Part shown: piece after piece, positions 1,457 to 63,550 of the stretch
How positions within the stretch are numbered: the stretch's first letter is position 1
Layout: every line of letters begins with the position of its first letter
From: a bacterium
Lineage (GTDB): Bacteria > Patescibacteriota > Minisyncoccia > Phycocordibacterales > GCA-002787175
Reading direction: 5' to 3'
Assembly: GCA_030699905.1 (NCBI GenBank)
Contig: JAUYKQ010000010.1
Coordinates: forward strand, 2,554-66,553
Length of the DNA stretch: 64,000 nucleotides
Notes under the pieces: model-generated
Seen by the model: only the letters and a program-made list of their open reading frames with translations
What the model was told of the DNA's origin: nothing
Database searches by the model: none
Translations under genes and position numbers: made by a program

Positions 1457-1493
1457 GGGACTGTTGCCAAAACGGATATTCGGCAACAGTCCC
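1457..1493. mobile_element. Minimal MITE-like hairpin: gggactgttgcc / ggcaacagtccc 12-bp perfect inverted repeat with a 13-nt spacer. Same terminal repeat as the 164-bp element at 34055-34218.
   Basis: Perfect inverted repeat seen in sequence. Shares GGGACTGTTGCC termini with the longer copy. Confidence 0.55.
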
Positions 1494-2262: not shown

Positions 2263-3411
2263 ATGTTCGCAAACATCATAAGCTCTTTCGGCGCGCTTTG
2301 GAAGAGACAAAACATTGATTGGGTATTGGCAGGGTCTGTATTACCACTCGTGGTTTCCGGCCTTGTAACAATGAACTCTTTTACCGGAGAGTCGTTTTTC
2401 TTTGAACGTCAGCTTGTGTGGGCTTCTCTCGGTTTTTTTGTCATGTTTGTTTTGAGTTTTGTGGATTGGCGGTTTCTGCGGAGAACAGATGTTTTAGTTA
2501 CCCTGTTTTCAGCGACTTGCGTGGTGCTTTTTCTCTTGTTTTTTTTAGGTAAGACCGTTAAAGGCGCTCAAAGTTGGTTTGACTTCGGTTTTTTCTCTTT
2601 TCAGCCGTCTGATCCGGCAAAAATAATGGTAATACTTATTCTTGCCAAATATTTTTCCAGACGGCATATAGAAATAGCCCATATCAGGCATATTCTTGTT
2701 TCCGGTTTTTACGCTTTTACGCTCTTTCTTCTGGTTTTTCTTCAGCCGGACTTTGGTTCCGCGATCATCATTTTCATGATTTGGTTTGGAATGGTTTTGG
2801 TTTCCGGCTTGTCAAAAAAACATGTTTTTGCCGTTTTTGCCGTTGCTGTTGTGACTTTTTCCGCCTTGTGGTTTTACGTTTTTGAGCCGTATCAAAAATT
2901 GAGGATAATGAATTTTATCCATCCGCTTGCGGATGTTCGCGGTTCCGGATATAACGCGCATCAGTCAACAATAGCAGTAGGTTCCGGAGAGGTTTTAGGC
3001 AAGGGCTTGGGATATGGAACACAGTCGCGACTTAAATTTCTGCCTGAATATGAGACCGATTTTATATTCGCGGCCTTCGCGGAGGAGTGGGGTTTTGTCG
3101 GTGTTACAATACTTTTCGCTTTTTTTGCGATGGTGATTTACCGCATACTTATGAACGCGGTATATGGAGCCACTAATTTTGAAACTCTTTATGCTTTAGG
3201 TTTGGCCATTCTTTTTATGAGTCATTTTGTAATACACATCGGCATGAATATCGGTGTCTTGCCGGTTACCGGTACGACGGTGCCTTTTTTAAGCTACGGA
3301 GGCAGTCATCTGCTCACGGAGTTTTTGGGGCTTGGGATACTCATGGGAATGCGTCGTTACAACAGGGCGACGCACAGAGAGATGGTGAAAAATGAAATAG
3401 TTGGTATATGA
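2263..3411 (+). CDS. SEDS-family peptidoglycan glycosyltransferase (FtsW/RodA).
   Basis: 10-TM protein with the FtsW/RodA signature GSGYNAHQSTIAVGSGEVLGKGLGYGTQSRLKFLPEYETDFIFAAFAEEWGFVG. Start chosen at the internal MFANIIS so it does not overlap the upstream ORF. Confidence 0.85.
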   Translation: MFANIISSFGALWKRQNIDWVLAGSVLPLVVSGLVTMNSFTGESFFFERQLVWASLGFFVMFVLSFVDWRFLRRTDVLVTLFSATCVVLFLLFFLGKTVKGAQSWFDFGFFSFQPSDPAKIMVILILAKYFSRRHIEIAHIRHILVSGFYAFTLFLLVFLQPDFGSAIIIFMIWFGMVLVSGLSKKHVFAVFAVAVVTFSALWFYVFEPYQKLRIMNFIHPLADVRGSGYNAHQSTIAVGSGEVLGKGLGYGTQSRLKFLPEYETDFIFAAFAEEWGFVGVTILFAFFAMVIYRILMNAVYGATNFETLYALGLAILFMSHFVIHIGMNIGVLPVTGTTVPFLSYGGSHLLTEFLGLGILMGMRRYNRATHREMVKNEIVGI

Positions 3412-3426
3412 TATCGTCTAAGTCGC

Positions 3427-4713
3427 TTACGCGTCGTACACGTTGACTGTTTTTATTAGCATTTCTTCAAATGAAAAGTCGGACATTATTTTTTCTTTGA
3501 GTTTGGCGCCAAACTGTTTTCTGTGGTTTTTACGAAGTATCAGGAATTTAATGGCGCTCCTTAACTCTTCGGCCGATTCCGGCCTTACTAAAATTCCAGA
3601 TTCCATGTCAGTGATTATTTCCGGTATTCCGCCGACACTTGAAGCCACTACCGGCAGACCGGCGGCTCCCGCTTCCAAAACGGCGTAAGGCAGACCTTCT
3701 TTTAGGGAAGGGAACAAGAACAAATCAAGTCCTTTCAAGAAGACAGACGCCTCTTCCATATGACCCTTGAATTTGACGCTGTCTTGAATTTCGTACTTTA
3801 AAACCTGACTTTCCAGATTCTGTCTTTCTTCTCCTTCGCCTACCACGACCAAGACAAAATGTTTATAAGGCAATCCATACAGTTCTTTGTCTTTTAAAAT
3901 GTCGGCAAAGGCCTTTATCGCAAAAAACAGGCCTTTGTTTTTATGAAGTTCTCCAAGAGTTCCTATCATGAATGTTTCTTTGCCGTGTTTGTCATCCGAC
4001 ATTTCTTCTCTGGATTCGGACATTTTTTTGAATTTTTGAGGTCTGACGCCGTTTCTTATGAGGGTGATTTTGTCTTTGGATGTTAAGAAGCAAGGGGAAA
4101 GGTTCTCGTCATCCTTGGAAACGGCAATAACTCGGTCGGAGAAAAACACTGAAAGCCAAGATCCAAAAAACGATACGGCGCGAAAAAAGATGCCCCGTTT
4201 TTCTTTAAATGGCCAGCCGTGAACAGTGAATACGACTCGCGCGGAACTCGCCGTTTGGCTGTCCGTGTTCAAAAATGGAATATGGGAAACAAAATTTGTT
4301 AAAAAAGATGCTAAAGAGCCGAGGAATGCCGCCTTGGGACTGTTTAAATGTATAATGTCAGGCCTTTCTTTTCTTAGGATTTTTACAAGTTCCCAGAGTG
4401 ATTTAAATTCTCCCAGAAAAAAAATTTCCCGCGTAAAAGTTTTGACAAAAACAGTCCTGACTTTTTTTAGGGAAAGTTTTCTCGCAAGCTCTCCGGGTGC
4501 GCTTCCCATGGCACCCGTCCCGCCAAGCACTACCACGTTTTCGTATTTTTCCTTTGGCAGGGAAGTCGCCAAGTCATAAACGTATCTTTGAGCTCCTCCC
4601 CAGTTGCTTTTGGTTATCACAAAAAGCACTTTCTTTTTCAGCACCGGTTCCATGTCTGTATTATATTTCTTTTTTTGGTTTTCCGCCATAAAACTGGAAA
4701 TTGCGCGCCCCAT
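3427..4713 (-). CDS. Glycosyltransferase family 4 (GT-B, group 1). Start may instead be MAENQ (4689) or MEPV (4653).
   Basis: C-terminal EX7E-type motif EGLPYAVLEAGAAGLPVVASSVGGIPEII. Confidence 0.75.
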   Translation of the reverse strand: MGRAISSFMAENQKKKYNTDMEPVLKKKVLFVITKSNWGGAQRYVYDLATSLPKEKYENVVVLGGTGAMGSAPGELARKLSLKKVRTVFVKTFTREIFFLGEFKSLWELVKILRKERPDIIHLNSPKAAFLGSLASFLTNFVSHIPFLNTDSQTASSARVVFTVHGWPFKEKRGIFFRAVSFFGSWLSVFFSDRVIAVSKDDENLSPCFLTSKDKITLIRNGVRPQKFKKMSESREEMSDDKHGKETFMIGTLGELHKNKGLFFAIKAFADILKDKELYGLPYKHFVLVVVGEGEERQNLESQVLKYEIQDSVKFKGHMEEASVFLKGLDLFLFPSLKEGLPYAVLEAGAAGLPVVASSVGGIPEIITDMESGILVRPESAEELRSAIKFLILRKNHRKQFGAKLKEKIMSDFSFEEMLIKTVNVYDA

Positions 4714-9847: not shown

Positions 9848-11675
9848 AGCCGATACTGCCTTCAAAGGAGAAGGTGTGGACTTTGACAATTAAAACTTGA
9901 AATATTAAAGATTTGAGACGTGCAAGGTCTCAAAGTCTATTCCTTCCCGGCAGTAGAGAATTAAAAATTTTCACTGCGGGAAAAAAATGATTCCACCGGC
10001 TGACTAAGACAGCCGGCAGAGCAAGTTCAAACTCTTAAAACAACAAACAAAATTTCAGCAAAAACTGTCTTTTGTTTTGTTCCGTTCTAAAAATGCAGAC
10101 AAGATGCAAACAAAACTCCGGCGGACGAGGGAGGCAACTCCTCCGTAGGTCGGAGCGATGTAGGCAATAATGTCCTCATTTCTTAAATTAGAGTTTGATC
10201 CTAGCTCAGGATGAACGCTGGCGGCGTGGATAAGGCATGCAAGTCAAGGGTGTGTGCGGAGCACACAGTTTATAAAGTTATAAAGTCATAAAGTTCATAA
10301 AGTCAGAATCTTCTGCTTTACAAACTTTTTACTTTACGAACTTGTAACTTGTGCGCTTCGCGCACAACCGGCAGACGAGGTAGTAATAAGTAGGAATGTC
10401 CCCAAGAGTCAGGCATAGCTACGCGAAAGCGTGGGTAATTCCTGATGGTCTGACCGCATCACATGGAATGTGAATTAAGTTTATCAAGTTCATAAAGTTG
10501 CAAGTTTATAAAGTAAGACCAATGCCGGATTTTTTAGGCTCGCTTTTCTTACTTGATGAACTTTATAACTTTTTACTTTATAAACTTATTTCGCCTCTCA
10601 TGTGATGCGGTCAGTAAAGTCGCAAGACGCTTTTGGAACAGCCTACTCGGTATCAGCTAGATGGTAGGGTAATGGCCTACCATGGCTATGACGCCTAGGG
10701 GGGGTGAGAGCCCGATCCCCACCGATCGGACTGAGATACGGCCGATACACCTACGGGTGGCTGCAGCCGAGAATATTCCGCAATGGGCGAAAGCCTGACG
10801 GAGCGACGCCGCGTGGTTGATGAAGTTCTTAGGAATGTAAAAACCTTTTATTAGGGAGGAAGCGTGCGAAGCACACTGTACATGACACTGATGACACGAA
10901 TGTAAAGAACGAATGACACGAATAAAATTAACAAGACTTGATTTTATTCGTGTCATTCGCATCTTCTATTCGTAGATTCGTGTCGAGTTCAGCGCGCTTC
11001 GCGCGTTTGACGTTACCTGATGAATAAGGGGTTGCTAAACTCGTGCCAGCAGCAGCGGTAATACGAGTGCCCCGAGCGTTATCCGGAATCATTGGGCGTA
11101 AAGGGTGTGTAGGCGGCTTTGTTAGTCCTCTGTTAAATTCTTCGGCTCAACCGGGGTCTTGCAGGGGATACGGCAAAGCTTGAGGGTGTGAGGGGTGAAT
11201 GGAACTCATGGTGTAGGGGTGAAATCCGTTGATATCATGGGGAACACCAAAAGCGAAGGCAATTCACTGGCGCACTCCTGACGCTGAAACACGAAAGCGT
11301 GGGTAGCGAATGGGATTAGATAATCCTTGCCCGCTAATAAAACATAGGCAAAAGGTGTCTCTCCCGAAGGCGACTTCGGGATGAAAATCTAGCTGTATCG
11401 GGGAAACTCTCTGACACTATGCGCTTACTGGCGCGTTGGAGACAATCCCGAGGGAAGTTTTCTTGCATTGAAAGAAGGTTAATTTACCTGCATTGTAATT
11501 CTTGGAGCAATGCTGGTGCGAGTAAGGGAAAAGAAAAACAACTGTCCATAGTCGGAGGGTTGGGTGTTGCGGGGCTATCTGCACATCTCTTTGTCCAGGA
11601 AAAACCACCAACAGAAAGCGTGAGTAATTCGTGAAAGCGTGAATATGTGTCCCTTACTCAATTTGTTCTTTGGGC

Positions 11676-11754
11676 GCGGATGTAGCTCAGTTGGAATGAG
11701 TATCACCTTGATAAGGTGAGGGTCGCAGGGTTCGAATCCTTGCCATCCGCTCCA
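11676..11754 (+). tRNA. tRNA-Ile(GAU)-like sequence embedded in the 5' half of the 16S site-788 intron. Cloverleaf with a slightly long variable/T region; may be a functional tRNA, a pseudo-tRNA or a tRNA-like intron domain.
   Basis: Acceptor gcggatg/catccgc, D-arm gctcagttggaatgagt, anticodon stem tcacc/ggtga with loop ttGATaa, T-loop ggttcgaatcc, 3' tcca. ~70% identical to bacterial tRNA-Ile(GAU). Confidence 0.55.
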
Positions 11755-11871: not shown

Positions 11872-12639
11872 ATGCAAAACGCGGATTCAAAATATGTGCC
11901 TTTGTCGAATCAAGTGCGAGCCATTATTCTAGGGTCAATTCTTGGAGATGGGTCGCTCAAGATTCAAAACGAGTACGCCAATGCGAATTTACAAATTCGT
12001 CATTCGGAAACTCAAAAAGACTATCTCTTATGGAAAGCGAATGTGCTTAAAGAGATAGCCGGAGATGGTAGTGTGAGCGTGCAAAAGCCGGATGGATACA
12101 GTACGAAGCCAAAGTGGAGGTTCAGGAGCAAGAGAACTCCAGCATTGACCGAACTGCATCATTTGACCTATAAGCACAATGCCTTGCGCATCAGGCGCAC
12201 ATGGTTAAATCAAATGAACGCTTTGTCGCTCGCCGTATGGTGGTGCGATGACGGTTCACTTATTGGCTACGGAGGCAGAAAAGGGGTGTTTTGTACCGAC
12301 GGCTTTGATGAAGAGTCAGTCAAAATACTTGCTCGCTATCTTGGAGTGGTTTGGAACATACGAGCGATAGTTGCTCCTGTCGGGCGAAAGCGCGATGGAA
12401 AGCAAGATCAGTATTGGCGGTTATGGATTCGTTCGCAGGAAGAATTGAAGAAATTTCTGCGTATTATCCTGCCGTACATACCTGTTTCGAGTATGCTCAA
12501 AAAAGCCATTCTACTCTATAAAGACCCTCAATTTCAACAACGCTGGATATCTGAAGTAATCAAGCTAAGTCCTTTTCCAGAATCTGTCATACTGGCGGAA
12601 TTTGAAAAAAAGAAAGCTAAATGGAATTGCTACAGATAA
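11872..12639 (+). CDS. LAGLIDADG homing endonuclease, double-motif, intron-encoded.
   Basis: Motifs LGSILGDGSL and LAVWWCDDGSL. Located inside the 16S intron. Confidence 0.85.
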   Translation: MQNADSKYVPLSNQVRAIILGSILGDGSLKIQNEYANANLQIRHSETQKDYLLWKANVLKEIAGDGSVSVQKPDGYSTKPKWRFRSKRTPALTELHHLTYKHNALRIRRTWLNQMNALSLAVWWCDDGSLIGYGGRKGVFCTDGFDEESVKILARYLGVVWNIRAIVAPVGRKRDGKQDQYWRLWIRSQEELKKFLRIILPYIPVSSMLKKAILLYKDPQFQQRWISEVIKLSPFPESVILAEFEKKKAKWNCYR

Positions 12640-12818
12640 AGATATAGTCCGGACTGCATGGAAACATGTAGAGCGAGGCAGAAATGCCCTCGCCTCCGCA
12701 TCAGGCGGAAGTAACATTTTCAACCCCAGTAGTCCACGCCCTAAACGATGTTCATTTGCTTTTCGGAGTATCGACCCTCTGAGAGGCGTAGCTAACGCGT
12801 TAAATGAACCGCCTGGGT

Positions 12819-12850
<32 letters not shown>

Positions 12851-13267
12851 AGACGGGGACTTGCACAAGCGGTGGATCATGTGGTTTAATTCGATACTAA
12901 ACGAAGAACCTTACCAAGCCTAGACATCCAAGGGAACTCCAGTAGAAATATTGGAGGCCACCACTTTGCGCGGAAGACGCAAAGTGAGTTCGTCAAGTTA
13001 TAAAGTATAAAGTTCATCAAGTTAGAGAATGTCTTACTTGATAAACTTTAAGAACTTTTGACTTGATAAACTTACTTTGTTCGCTTGCGAACAAAGTGCG
13101 GGGAGGAAGGCGAGGATGACGCCAGATCAGCATGACCCTTTGACGGCTTGGGCTACACACGTGATACAATGGCTGTTACAACACGTTTGCGACGGAGTAA
13201 TCCTGAGCTAATCGTTATAAAAGCAGCCCCAGTTCGGATTGAGGTCTGCAACTCGACCTCATGAAGT

Positions 13268-13314
<47 letters not shown>

Positions 13315-13322
13315 TCAAGTCT

Positions 13323-14262
13323 TGTACTCGGGTCGCCATGCGATCGAGTACGCTAGTTGGTGACCCGTCCTTCGTTAAAATTACGGAGGGCACGGTCCAG
13401 CTGTAATTTTTGAGCTTAATTAAATAAAAACCCCTGCTTATTTTATAAGGGGGGTTTAGGATCTAGAACTCTGAAAGCTGTTGTTGCGAGTTTCTATCTC
13501 TATTCTGCGGGACCGGCGTTGGATCTATTCAAACCAACCGCTTTCGCTTTTGGGGACTGATTTCGAACATTCTTCCAGAACTCCCTGACAAGATCCCTAA
13601 TTAATTAGGTCAGGACTATGTTACATGTTATCATATCTTGTGTTATCAGTCAAGAGCTTGAAAATTACAGCTGGACACGTTTTCGCTGAAGCTATAGCGA
13701 GGCGAGGAAATCCAACCAAGACAATTCACAGTGTCTTGAAGCGAAATACTAGTCTACTGTCCGCGAGGACTATAGATGAAGGAGTAAAGTAGCATTTCTT
13801 AGCTTGAATGCCAGTCATGGCGCATAACAGAGGTTATCCTGCGAGTACATGGAGAAACCTACTGTGTTACAAAAACTGTTATGCGTATCGTGGCATCGAG
13901 ATGAGAAAAAACAGTGTATTCGGTTACCGTGGGAGATCTCACTTGTTCTTTGTTTTTAAAGAGCAAAGTAAGCAATATATTAGGACGGGCAAAAATTTCC
14001 TAAAGTATTGATTAACAATAAGTGAGAAGTCTGCAGAGTCCGTAGTACCTATCGAAGTAAAATTTGATAGGGAAGGGACGAACTTAGAGGTTGTATGTAA
14101 TTTTTAATTTTGCATTGCTTGTCCCGTAGCGAGTTCTGCTCTGCTACAGGGATCATTTTGCATTTTGAGATTTGCATTTTAAATTTCTAAGAACCGCTAG
14201 GGTGCGGGAAAACCGCTTGCCCAGTGGTGTTTGGCTATTGAAAATAAATATCAATTGACCGA
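13323..14262 (+). other. ~940-nt ORF-less insertion in 16S near E. coli site ~1390, between cttgtac and accgcccgtca. Contains a long-range inverted repeat (13395-13411 / 13664-13680). Possibly a degenerate intron or other intervening sequence.
   Basis: Flanking conserved 16S segments gaatacgttctc...cttgtac and accgcccgtcaactcaagggagt. No ORF longer than 67 aa. Confidence 0.5.
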
Positions 14263-31865: not shown

Positions 31866-32876
31866 GTGTATATTGTTTGTATGAAAATCGTCATTGCCAC
31901 AGGTATTTATCCTCCGCAAATCGGCGGTCCTGCCCAATATGCCAAAAATTTGGCCCTCGCATTTGAGTCGCTCGGGCACGCTGTTTCTGTCGTTCATTAC
32001 AAGTTTGAAAACCTGCTTCCTACCGGTCTGCGTCATGTTTTCTTCTTTTTGCGTGTTTTCGGCAGAATGCTAAAAGCTGATTTTGTCGTATCACTGGACT
32101 CTTTCAGTGTTGGTTTCCCGACTGCCGTGGCCACCGGAATTTTGGGGAAAAAACATGTCATGCGCACCGGCGGAGATTTTCTGTGGGAGTCGTATGTGGA
32201 GAGAACGGGAGACACTGTTCTTTTGAAAAATTTTTACGACACAAGATTGGCCAAACTGTCTTTTAAAGAAAAAGTCATTTTCTCTTTAACGAAGTGGACT
32301 CTGAAAAAGGCCGACAAGGTGGTTTTCAGCACCGACTGGCAGAGAAGCATCTGGGCTCGGCCTTATGAGATGAACTGGCAAAATACTGCCATTATTGAAA
32401 ACTACTATGGACCGAAAGAAAAGTCGGAAAAACCGACAGTAAAGACCTTTTTGGGGGCGACACGCAAACTAAAATGGAAAAACCACGCCCGACTCAAATC
32501 GGCTTTTGCCATGGCGAAAGTGAAGGAGCGAGATATAGAGCTTGATCTTGAAAACGAGCCATACGATAAATTTATTCAAAAAATGAAGAAATGTTATGCC
32601 GTGGTACTTTTGTCTTTGGGTGACATAAGTCCGAATATGATATTGGACTCTGTACGCTTTTCCAAACCCTTTATATTGACCAGAGAAAACGGTCTTTACG
32701 ACAGGTTGAAAGACGTCGGAATGTTCGCGGATCCTGAAGATGAAAACGATATCGCGGAAAAGATAAAAGACCTATGCCAGCCGGAGGTTTATGAAGAGTA
32801 CCGAAGAAGAGTGGAGGGTTTCACTTTCGTGCACACTTACGAAGATATCGCGAAAGAATTTTTATCACTGTCATGA
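31866..32876 (+). CDS. Glycosyltransferase, GT4-like (GT-B).
   Basis: N-terminal MKIVIATGIYPPQIGGPAQYAKNLA typical of the GT4 N-domain. Confidence 0.55.
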   Translation: MYIVCMKIVIATGIYPPQIGGPAQYAKNLALAFESLGHAVSVVHYKFENLLPTGLRHVFFFLRVFGRMLKADFVVSLDSFSVGFPTAVATGILGKKHVMRTGGDFLWESYVERTGDTVLLKNFYDTRLAKLSFKEKVIFSLTKWTLKKADKVVFSTDWQRSIWARPYEMNWQNTAIIENYYGPKEKSEKPTVKTFLGATRKLKWKNHARLKSAFAMAKVKERDIELDLENEPYDKFIQKMKKCYAVVLLSLGDISPNMILDSVRFSKPFILTRENGLYDRLKDVGMFADPEDENDIAEKIKDLCQPEVYEEYRRRVEGFTFVHTYEDIAKEFLSLS

Positions 32877-34054
32877 AGGTCTTATCCATAGGAACAGACA
32901 GAAAATTATTTGAAGAAGAAAGCGACGTCCTGTCGCGAACTTTGGAGTACGCGAAACTTTTTGACGAGCTTCATGTTATCGTCTTCACGACAAAAAAATT
33001 CAAGATTCGAAATTTGAGATTTAAGAACGGAGACAGGAAGATGGCGATATCGGATAATTGTTGGATTTATCCGACCTGTTCACGGAATCGCTGGTTTTAT
33101 GTTTTTGACGCAATTGCCCTCGGTGTTCAGATCCTAAGTCATAAATCTGAAATTACAAATCAGGAAAACGGCTTTGTTGTTTCCTGTCAAGACCCTTTTG
33201 AATGCGGTCTTGCCGGCGCGCGTATTGCAAAAAAAACCGGCGCTAAACTTCACGTACAGATTCATACCGACTTTTTGAGTCCTTATTTTAAAAAAGGAGG
33301 TTTTCTAAACATGGTTCGGCTATTTTTAGCCGGCCGTGTCTTGCCTAAAGCAGACGCCATACGGGTGGTATCAAAACGCATTGCCGATTCTTTGGTCTTT
33401 AAATATAAAAATATAAAGGTGTCAAAACTTTCAATTCTGCCCATGTTTTTGGATGAGGGAAAAATAAAAAACGCTCCCGTAACCGCGGATTTACATAAAA
33501 AATATCCAAAGTTCACTTTTATCGTTCTTGTGTTGTCTCGTTTTACAAAGGAGAAAAACATACTCTTGGCCATTGACGCTTTTTCCAGAGTCGTCCTAAA
33601 ACATCCGCGCGCCGGCCTTGTCATTGTCGGTTCCGGTCCACAGATGTCGTTCCTCAAGGCGCAAGTGGCGCGAAGCAATTTATCTCAAAACGTCGTGTTT
33701 GAAGGTTGGACTTCCGACCCATACTCCTACATCAAAAGTTCTGATTTGGTTTTGCAGACGTCTTGGTACGAAGGTTACGGTCTTGCTGTCGCGGAATCTC
33801 TTCTTTGCGGTATACCGGTTGTTTCCACTTCTGTCGGGGTGGCGACGGAACTTCTCATGGATAACGCGTATTCGTTTGTTTGCGAACCCGGGGACGCAAA
33901 ATGCCTTTCAGAAAAAATGACGGCTTTTATGGAAAAAAGAACTCTTTTCGGATTTGTGGTTGAAAATGCGCGGAGGAAATTGCAAGGCGGCCTTCCCACA
34001 AAAGAAGAGTACTTGAGAAAATACAAAAATTCGGTTTTTTCAGTATTTTCTTAA
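32873..34054 (+). CDS. Glycosyltransferase family 4.
   Basis: EGYGLAVAESLLCGIPVVSTSVGVATELL (EX7E). Confidence 0.7.
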   Translation: MKVLSIGTDRKLFEEESDVLSRTLEYAKLFDELHVIVFTTKKFKIRNLRFKNGDRKMAISDNCWIYPTCSRNRWFYVFDAIALGVQILSHKSEITNQENGFVVSCQDPFECGLAGARIAKKTGAKLHVQIHTDFLSPYFKKGGFLNMVRLFLAGRVLPKADAIRVVSKRIADSLVFKYKNIKVSKLSILPMFLDEGKIKNAPVTADLHKKYPKFTFIVLVLSRFTKEKNILLAIDAFSRVVLKHPRAGLVIVGSGPQMSFLKAQVARSNLSQNVVFEGWTSDPYSYIKSSDLVLQTSWYEGYGLAVAESLLCGIPVVSTSVGVATELLMDNAYSFVCEPGDAKCLSEKMTAFMEKRTLFGFVVENARRKLQGGLPTKEEYLRKYKNSVFSVFS

Positions 34055-34218
34055 GGGACTGTTGCCGAATAGGCTTTTGAGTTGATTTTTTCAAAATTCG
34101 TGCGAGGCGAAGTTTCAAATTTATGGCTTAATGCTCTAAAGTATTGGCCAAAAATTTGAAACAAGCCGTAGCCGAATTTTGGGGAAATCAGCCAAAATGG
34201 ATATTCGGCAACAGTCCC
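34055..34218. mobile_element. MITE-like element, 164 bp, with perfect 17-bp terminal inverted repeats GGGACTGTTGCCGAATA. Inserted exactly at the TAA stop of the upstream glycosyltransferase gene, with TTAA on both flanks (possible target site duplication).
   Basis: Left TIR 34055-34071, right TIR 34202-34218 (reverse complement). The same 12-nt termini form the hairpin at 1457-1493. Confidence 0.7.
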
Positions 34219-34445
34219 CTTAAAGCATGTTTGAAAAACCTATCGCGATGCCGATTTTGCAAAATTTGAGGAAAAAATGGTGAAGATGAGGGAAGTGTAC
34301 CGAGGTGCTCTGACCGAAGATGAGTCATTTTTTACCGAATTTTGCGGAATCGGCGCGCGAAACAGTCCGCTTGCGGATTTCTTAAATATCTGTGGTAGGG
34401 TTTTCAAACATGTTCTAAATTCAGATTTTGATATAAAATGTTTCA

Positions 34446-63389: not shown

Positions 63390-63550
63390 TCGGCTCGCCC
63401 CGTTAGAAGCTTTGCTTCTAACGGGGCTCGGGAGTGAAAAGTCAAAGCACTTTTCACTCCTCTCGCATAACGATCGCTTATATAGACATACTATATAAGC
63501 TCCTCGGCTCGGGAGTGAAAAGTCAAAGCACTTTTCACTCCTCTCGCTCT
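63390..63550. repeat. Two direct copies of a ~55-nt unit, each with a 12-bp perfect hairpin (ggagtgaaaagt caaagc acttttcactcc). The first copy carries an extra nested hairpin (ccccgttagaagc/gcttctaacgggg).
   Basis: ataagctcctcggctcg...ggagtgaaaagtcaaagcacttttcactcctctcgc is repeated. Confidence 0.55.

Follow-up and report, generated by a model that had tools for sequence, protein, structure and literature searches.

Why should a long hairpin with perfectly inverted ends sit directly behind the stop codon of a glycosyltransferase gene in a patescibacterial genome? The question is raised by positions 34,055 to 34,218 of the window, by which we mean the whole 64,000-nucleotide stretch of DNA that was analyzed. 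In the first-pass annotation of this DNA the segment was taken for a MITE with 17-bp terminal inverted repeats (TIRs), and a short hairpin near the start of the window for a second, minimal copy. We consider it highly probable, at about 0.9, that the segment is indeed an IS5-derived MITE, and that it belongs to a family spread through the genomes of the Patescibacteria (CPR). The MITE interpretation has gained the support of many further copies, of the target-site duplications (TSDs) around these copies, and of an IS with the same ends. What the hairpin does now that it is there is a separate question, to which the pattern of substitutions in its stem gives a more tentative answer.

The Element and Its Insertion Site

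The features discussed here are collected in Table 1. The length of 164 bp and the perfect 17-bp TIRs that had been annotated were confirmed from the sequence; by our own arithmetic, chance would produce such a perfect inverted pair of 17 nt within 400 nt about 1.5e-3 times per 64 kb. With slashes marking the junctions, the element reads ...GTATTTTCTTAA / GGGACTGTTGCCGAATA...TATTCGGCAACAGTCCC / CTTAAAGC..., and the empty site reconstructed from it is ...GTATTTTCTTAAAGCATGTTTG.... The insertion lies right after the TAA of the GT4 ORF (32873-34054; Pfam Glycos_transf_1, 6.8e-30), exactly where the first-pass annotation had placed it. The same annotation had proposed a candidate TSD of 4 bp, TTAA, that includes the stop codon. 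The duplication does include the stop codon, but it is 5 bp long and reads CTTAA on both sides.

Table 1. Positions in the window of the 164-bp element, its ends and duplicated flanks, and the short copy.
Feature	Position	Strand	Remarks
Foldback MITE, very probably a non-autonomous IS5-family derivative	34055..34218	.	164 bp; TIRs, fold, relatives; nhmmer 8e-45
Left TIR	34055..34071	+	GGGACTGTTGCCGAATA; same as both TIRs of the 1265-bp IS
Right TIR	34202..34218	-	TATTCGGCAACAGTCCC as read on the + strand; perfect reverse complement of the left TIR
Left TSD copy, CTTAA	34050..34054	+	read from the sequence; holds the GT4 stop TAA, 34052-34054
Right TSD copy, CTTAA	34219..34223	+	read from the sequence; fits the nTnAn consensus
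37-nt copy, best read as a remnant	1457..1493	.	left 12 nt of the TIR and right 25 nt of the element; nhmmer 3.3e-07

The gene that follows the element belongs to the UDP-glucose dehydrogenase family and lies on the same strand as the GT4 gene; a search for its protein found no record. The best homologues of the GT4 protein come from Parcubacteria and Paceibacterota MAGs, and even the nearest of them is only 49% identical. The identical GT4 protein is also encoded on a Logan unitig, which ends 30 nt into the element, as unitigs are expected to do at repeats.

The ORFs that overlap the element are trivial (41-63 aa), and the DNA folds as a single long hairpin (-51.4 kcal/mol, z -11). Terminator prediction gave no T-run terminator here, and at the gathering threshold Rfam 15 has no match at 34055-34218 or 1457-1493. 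Within the window, the 12-mer GGGACTGTTGCC is matched perfectly at exactly four places, namely the ends of the 164-bp element and the ends of the short copy. An nhmmer profile built from 15 copies of the family likewise matched these two copies only in the 64 kb. The earlier statement that the window holds no transposase also stands, as a tblastn search of it with the 333-aa transposase of the partner IS described below returned no homologue.

A Repeat Family of the Patescibacteria

The 17-mer terminus was used to scan one genome per species from 185,579 species, 596 Gb in total, and matched at least 120 loci. About 69 chance matches to a 17-mer are expected in 596 Gb by our own calculation, and the roughly 55 single matches in non-CPR genomes among the matches listed fit this expectation. 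Among the matches listed, the genomes with several copies are all Patescibacteria. They include the Taylorbacteria genome MHSB01 (RIFCSPLOWO2_01_FULL_50_130), with about 18 copies of 98 bp among the matches listed, C24_metabat.bin.140 with at least 10 family copies, GW2011_GWA2_47_26 with at least 7, and the single-cell genome AM-312-K06. Further hosts among the matches listed are MAGs of Sungii-, Uhr-, Lipton-, Kerfeld-, Doudna- and Saccharibacteria. A scan of viral contigs gave 0 matches.

Aligned over its full length, the copy in the window shares 92-96% identity with at least five copies in C24_metabat.bin.140 and 87% with a sixth. Copies with two ends come in several sizes, of 37, 63-73, 98, about 160-164 and 185-325 bp. 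The first-pass annotation had held that, were these two copies the only ones in the genome and no IS to match them, a regulatory palindrome would be the better explanation. What was found instead is that inverted pairs of the same termini are present in many related genomes, and that an IS with these termini exists.

The flanks of the copies carry the record of their insertion. A perfect 5-bp TSD surrounds 32 of the 64 two-ended copies, and the flanks of 10 more agree at four of the five positions; the two controls, one with the outer 5-mers and the other with the frame moved by one base, had 0/64 perfect duplications each. The sequences of the sites vary around a target consensus of nTnAn, in which position 2 is T in 25/32 and position 4 is A in 26/32. 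Such a pattern of 5-bp TSDs is what a DDE-type transposase leaves behind when it cuts its target with a 5-bp stagger. As for their position relative to genes, 71% of random positions but only 11 of 58 MITEs fall inside ORFs of at least 120 aa, and 14/58 are located no more than 10 nt from an ORF end. This intergenic bias and the closeness to ORF ends make the insertion at the GT4 stop codon typical of the family.

Several individual loci deserve a few words of their own. Two contigs labelled Gammaproteobacteria, L006 and L050 (binchicken_co266_189 and co38_1207), hold complete ~160-bp family copies; they may be mis-binned CPR contigs or may represent a real occurrence across phyla. In the Sungiibacteriota contig JACOYX010000007.1 (L063, 4774-7252), two inverted MITEs bracket genes of 377 and 278 aa in the manner of a composite transposon. 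This arrangement was considered as a full IS and rejected, as the termini 2479 bp apart belong to two ~160-bp MITEs (TSDs TAAAA and ATAAG) around two ordinary genes. The matches in the Akkermansia muciniphila MAG CAMBQN01 (L040, L056, L071, L081 and L113) were also set aside: five contig ends share the same IS terminus, and the 17-mer is internal to this unrelated IS, about 60 nt from its end and beside a hairpin, AGTCCCTAG...CTAGGGACT.

The Probable Autonomous Partner

The first-pass annotation had suggested looking for an IS with the same termini, and such an IS was found. Some of the matches were "solo" ends located at contig ends in Sungbacteria and Saccharibacteria MAGs, with two kinds of inner sequence, both unlike that of the MITE. 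A metagenome scan with the inner sequence GGGACTGTTGCCGAATAGCCCC gave 12 loci, five of which (L128, L129 at 2320-3584, L131, L132 and L137) contain a complete element of 1265 bp whose perfect 17-bp TIRs are those of the MITE. The two kinds of solo end turned out to be exactly the two ends of this element. A 1266-bp IS with identical TIRs and 89% protein identity is present in Candidatus Vogelbacteria (L158, GCA_016177055.1). The hosts of the IS are Sungbacteria and Vogelbacteria MAGs, and it also occurs in groundwater metagenomes.

The IS carries one intact ORF of 333 aa with the Pfam domains DUF772 and DDE_Tnp_1, which scores 147.6 bits against the NCBIfam model NF033581 for the IS5 family (cutoff 140). 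Its homologues at E <= 1e-20 number 1,698, most of them on contigs of about 1.26 kb, which points to the IS having been assembled alone. Among annotated transposases on plasmids, the closest show at most 42% identity, mostly less than 31%, and all of them are labelled IS5 family. The 333-aa transposase is absent from the 120 genome loci among the matches listed.

In L128 the IS is flanked by a perfect duplication of GACAA. The remaining IS contigs join flanks of three insertion sites, TTGTC, ATGAT and GACAT, as is expected when an assembler walks through a repeat. Sister clades with 70-78% identity have the variant TIRs GGGACTGTTGCCAAATA, GGGCCTGTCGCCAAAT and GGCCCTGTCGCCAAATG, and 5-bp TSDs (AGAAG, TAGAT, TTTAC) were seen in two of them. 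Forms of the IS with internal deletions, 1054 and 859 bp in length, also exist, as would be expected if a MITE arises from an IS in stages. In the alignment of the MITE arm with the right end of the IS, 26 of 29 positions are identical and nothing convincing follows further inward, so the descent of the MITE from the IS rests on the termini and on the shared length of the TSD.

Two other IS families were met in the course of the search. An IS982 element was tried as the partner on account of a transposase fragment beside the solo end in L046, and was rejected: it has ends of its own, ACTTTGAATTACGAAAC, and is nested 72 nt inside the element. In L046 (1-333), L134 and L136 alike, an internally deleted IS982-family element is inserted in the IS5-type IS, at 72 nt from the left end of the latter. 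In the Kerfeldbacteria contig MHKF01000018.1 (L002, 2065-3400), a tyrosine-recombinase gene adjoins a truncated MITE end and is split by an unrelated IS5/DDE_Tnp_4 IS of about 1 kb with the TIR TAGACCTGTTGCG, also given as TAGACCTGTTGCGTATTAA; the core of this TIR is similar to the MITE terminus.

These components suggest how the insertion may have come about. The 17-bp termini would be the binding and cleavage sites of the 333-aa IS5-family DDE transposase supplied by the 1265-bp IS. Acting in trans, the transposase would excise or copy the MITE and insert it at an nTnAn target through a 5-bp staggered cut, the repair of which would leave the 5-bp duplication. In the window, the MITE would have landed on a CTTAA that overlaps the GT4 stop codon; the left duplication would then have restored the TAA, so that the GT4 protein would be left unchanged. 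At the locus, a hairpin with a stem of about 70 bp now separates the GT4 gene from the gene of the UDP-glucose dehydrogenase family.

The Short Copy

The 37-nt copy begins 30 nt past a terminator-like hairpin (1408-1427) downstream of the 5S rRNA gene. Its site and its 12-nt termini in common with the long copy had been described correctly by the first-pass annotation, but the likeness goes further than that. The copy consists of GGGACTGTTGCC joined to AAAACGGATATTCGGCAACAGTCCC, the latter of which differs from the right 25 nt of the long copy at a single position (24 of 25 identical; repeat D16). The flanks, ATATA (1452-1456) and ATCTA (1494-1498), are alike at 4/5 positions. The junction between the two parts sits at a GCC/GCC microhomology, and both arms of the long copy read GCC at this point, which fits the loss of the palindromic interior by deletion between short direct repeats, the mechanism also of the "nearly precise excision" of Tn10.

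The short copy is therefore best read as a remnant of a longer copy after internal deletion, a reading we prefer to the classical transposase excision footprint or the independent minimal element that had been suggested for it. It would be what is left of another copy after the palindromic interior was lost between the GCC microhomologies, and slippage may have been the mechanism of this loss. Comparable remnants of 37-73 nt are found in other genomes (L088 at 4666, L024, L075, L003 and L073).

A Possible Constraint on the Foldback

The copies of the ~160-nt class, which come from at least nine MAGs, all fold end to end, and the interior alone gives z values of -3.6 to -12. A covariation alignment was made from 21 copies out of at least nine MAGs, with a mean column identity of 70%. 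In this alignment, 92.8% of the cells pair. Changes on both sides that keep the pair were counted in 99 cells and involve 20 of the 37 pairs, against 31 +/- 4.6 cells in the shuffles, a control that overstates the significance because the aligned sequences are related. In the slid controls, for which the partner was moved by one to three columns, pairing falls to 32-55%.

The terminal symmetry of the partner IS, by comparison, extends over about 19 bp only. Since the full-length IS has no more symmetry than this, the extended symmetry of the MITE is not needed for recognition by the transposase. Covariation in the stem beyond the need of recognition hints at an added constraint which the plain "selfish MITE" model leaves unexplained. 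The extended symmetry could reflect selection on the hairpin or, equally, a neutral homogenization of the arms.

Small foldback elements with effects on RNA are well known from other bacteria, and two of them offer a useful comparison. In the Correia elements the TIRs measure 26 bp and the duplicated target is TA; no transposase is known for them, whereas a partner IS is identified here. The Correia/NEMIS elements of Neisseria are also TIR-bounded foldbacks of 100-160 bp in intergenic or 3'-UTR positions, and they also give rise to RNA hairpins, with no relation in sequence to the present family. The ERIC/IRU elements of the Enterobacteriaceae are imperfect palindromes as well, of about 127 bp and often at the 3' ends of genes; they too are unrelated to our family in sequence, and their transposition signature differs. 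Correia transcripts are cleaved by RNase III, and ERIC elements at the 3' ends of genes show effects of RNase E with altered mRNA decay (PMC10969869).

With these precedents in mind, the segment could be a MITE by origin that has been kept as a functional hairpin, either as RNA, with a role in RNase III processing or mRNA stability, or as a DNA cruciform. The high pairing of the stem, the excess of compensated cells over the shuffles and the loss of pairing in the slid controls all go in this direction, and so do the end-to-end fold of the ~160-nt copies, the clustering of copies at gene ends and the RNase III and RNase E effects just mentioned. On balance we regard this reading as unlikely, albeit worth keeping in mind. 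Symmetrical arms may arise without any function, by conversion between arms or from palindromic master copies; the kinship of the sequences inflates the significance obtained by shuffling; and the 98-nt and remnant classes do without most of the stem. If the hairpin acts at all, it may do so on the processing or stability of the mRNA.

A broader proposal can be put forward with similar reserve. One IS5-type IS/MITE system, with termini exact to the base, would circulate among lineages of the Patescibacteria as distant as Paceibacteria-type groups, Saccharibacteria and Doudnabacteria, and its compensated ~160-nt foldback would perhaps have been co-opted in the reduced genomes as an intercistronic RNA hairpin, again through RNase III or stability, instead of being purely selfish. 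As a whole, we see this as a doubtful idea.

Other Readings of the Hairpin

The readings in which the segment is not an IS5-derived MITE fare much less well. In one of them it would be a fixed, non-mobile regulatory palindrome or a terminator-like hairpin of the operon. This would go well with its very strong folding, with a site between two sugar-metabolism genes on the same strand, and with the second, unrelated long hairpin that adjoins it (34220-34418), but we find it very improbable in view of the copies of 92-96% identity at unrelated loci of another MAG, the 5-bp flank duplications of variable sequence around the copies, and the existence of an IS with the same termini; the site also lacks a predicted T-run terminator.

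In another reading, the segment would be a REPIN-like hairpin, a doublet of REP sequences spread by a RAYT or an IS200-like Y1 (HUH) transposase and not by a DDE enzyme. REPINs with their RAYT are also hairpin-forming, intergenic and multi-copy; they depend on the Y1 transposase and have no TSD, as Y1 transposition does not duplicate its target site. In favor of this reading, the element is a long imperfect palindrome with conserved ends, and in the Taylorbacteria contig MHSB01000052.1 (L010) a Y1 gene of 163 aa (Pfam Y1_Tnp, 3.8e-30) does start about 80 nt inside a MITE end. In our family, by contrast, 5-bp TSDs are the rule and the partner with identical termini is a DDE IS, and L010 is a single case in which the MITE sequence stops after 41 nt, as if an IS200-like element had inserted there. 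We thus hold a REPIN-like origin to be most unlikely. As to L010 itself (1-684), a MITE end of the 98-bp type gives way after 41 nt to a hairpin and a complete Y1 gene, and it is probably a case of an IS200-like element inserted into a MITE.

Elements of the Tn3 family produce 5-bp TSDs, and their inverted repeats follow the pattern GGGG...TAAG. A derivative of this family, of the kind described as TIMEs (PMC13367494), would have the 5-bp TSD, the AT-rich targets and a terminus starting with GGG in its favor, but is hardly credible for a family whose partner encodes an IS5-family transposase of 333 aa and not one of ~1000 aa as in Tn3, and whose TIRs measure 17-19 bp, not ~38 bp, with no GGGG...TAAG.

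Relation to Known IS/MITE Systems

This leaves the IS5-derived MITE, and the question of how it relates to the IS5-type systems already described. The partner IS has the same layout as IS5 (InsH) of E. coli and the IS5 group, in that it measures about 1.2 kb and has a single ORF with the domains DUF772 and DDE_Tnp_1, and its TIR ends in ...GCCGAATAG, like the ...GCGAATAAG of IS5. IS5 itself duplicates a target of 4 bp, YTAR. The partner differs from it by its 5-bp TSD and by its hosts, which are Patescibacteria. For the classical subgroups of IS5, the TSD lengths given by ISfinder are 2-4, 8 or 9 bp, and 5 bp is not known to be among them. The 5 bp of the partner IS, seen in two of its sister clades as well, match none of these subgroup lengths; this is a difference at the level of a subgroup and not one that defines a family.

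A close parallel to the whole arrangement comes from Porphyromonas gingivalis, where MITE464/PgRS and BrickBuilt occur together with ISPg4 and ISPg1. These MITEs are likewise small, intergenic and non-coding, they form long stem-loops, and their TIRs are those of IS5-family ISs, as is the case here (PMC4596501). The termini of ISPg4 and MITE464 read GAGACTGTTGCA, and our MITE core GGGACTGTTGCC is identical to this sequence at 10 of 12 positions (PMC4596501). The differences from MITE464 and BrickBuilt lie in the host phylum, in the interior, and in the whole element being a single foldback in our family; the TSDs of BrickBuilt are irregular, whereas those found here are regular, of 5 bp and of the nTnAn type.

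The IS-derived MITE is well known as a kind of element, and a report of it in Patescibacteria was not found. In our search of the full-text literature, neither MITEs nor this IS were found to be described from Patescibacteria/CPR, a MITE survey of 183,232 genomes does not mention CPR groups, and a full-text search for the 12-mer GGGACTGTTGCC returned unrelated primers only. The peculiarities of the present system, namely the 5-bp nTnAn target, the compensated foldback and the spread across CPR classes, are at the level of a subgroup.

Other Repeats in the Window

The window contains several other repeated or palindromic structures. The long hairpin that adjoins the MITE at 34220-34418 has outer arms TTAAAGCATGTTTGAAAAACCTA / TAGGGTTTTCAAACATGTTCTAA of 23 nt that are 87% complementary, encloses an inner hairpin at 34250-34354, and has no other copy in the loci that were fetched. 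It was considered as a decayed copy of the MITE and rejected, as its local alignment score of 33 is not significant when set against shuffles (28 +/- 5).

The rRNA genes have their own share of repeats. Two separate pieces of the 16S rRNA gene were detected (10183-11392 and 12576-13354), with a tRNA match between them at 11676-11751, and there is a match to group II intron D1-D4 at 14009-14078. The split 16S gene and the intron domain make the window look like CPR DNA; rRNA genes with large insertions are typical of this group. The short repeats AAGTTCATAAAGT / AACTTTTTACTTTACAAACTT occur in direct and inverted orientation at 730-830, 1207-1293, 10267-10587 and 12987-13073, and thus cluster at the 23S end, at the 5S gene and inside the 16S insertions. 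A direct repeat of 140 nt, D1, has two copies of 88% identity at 1184-1323 and 12964-13103; the first covers the 3' part of the 5S gene and the region downstream, and the second lies inside the second 16S piece. Toward the end of the window, two identical units of 42 nt (63425-63466 and 63506-63547) are spaced 81 nt apart, each of them with the palindrome GGAGTGAAAAGT...ACTTTTCACTCC.

Implications

The identity of the segment as a MITE explains the presence of a hairpin at the end of the GT4 gene. The implications for assembly are of a practical kind. The IS and its MITEs break assemblies, which explains many of the contig breaks in Patescibacteria MAGs, and the pair, as defined by its TIR, its 5-bp nTnAn target and the sequence of its transposase, could be deposited and serve to mask or scaffold CPR assemblies. 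The same IS/MITE system can also be used as a marker of horizontal exchange. For the biology of these organisms, it means that the ~1-Mb genomes of an episymbiotic lineage still host active-looking transposons, and that these are common to several classes. The substitutions that preserve the structure of the stem, finally, raise the question of whether the hairpin has been co-opted by its hosts.
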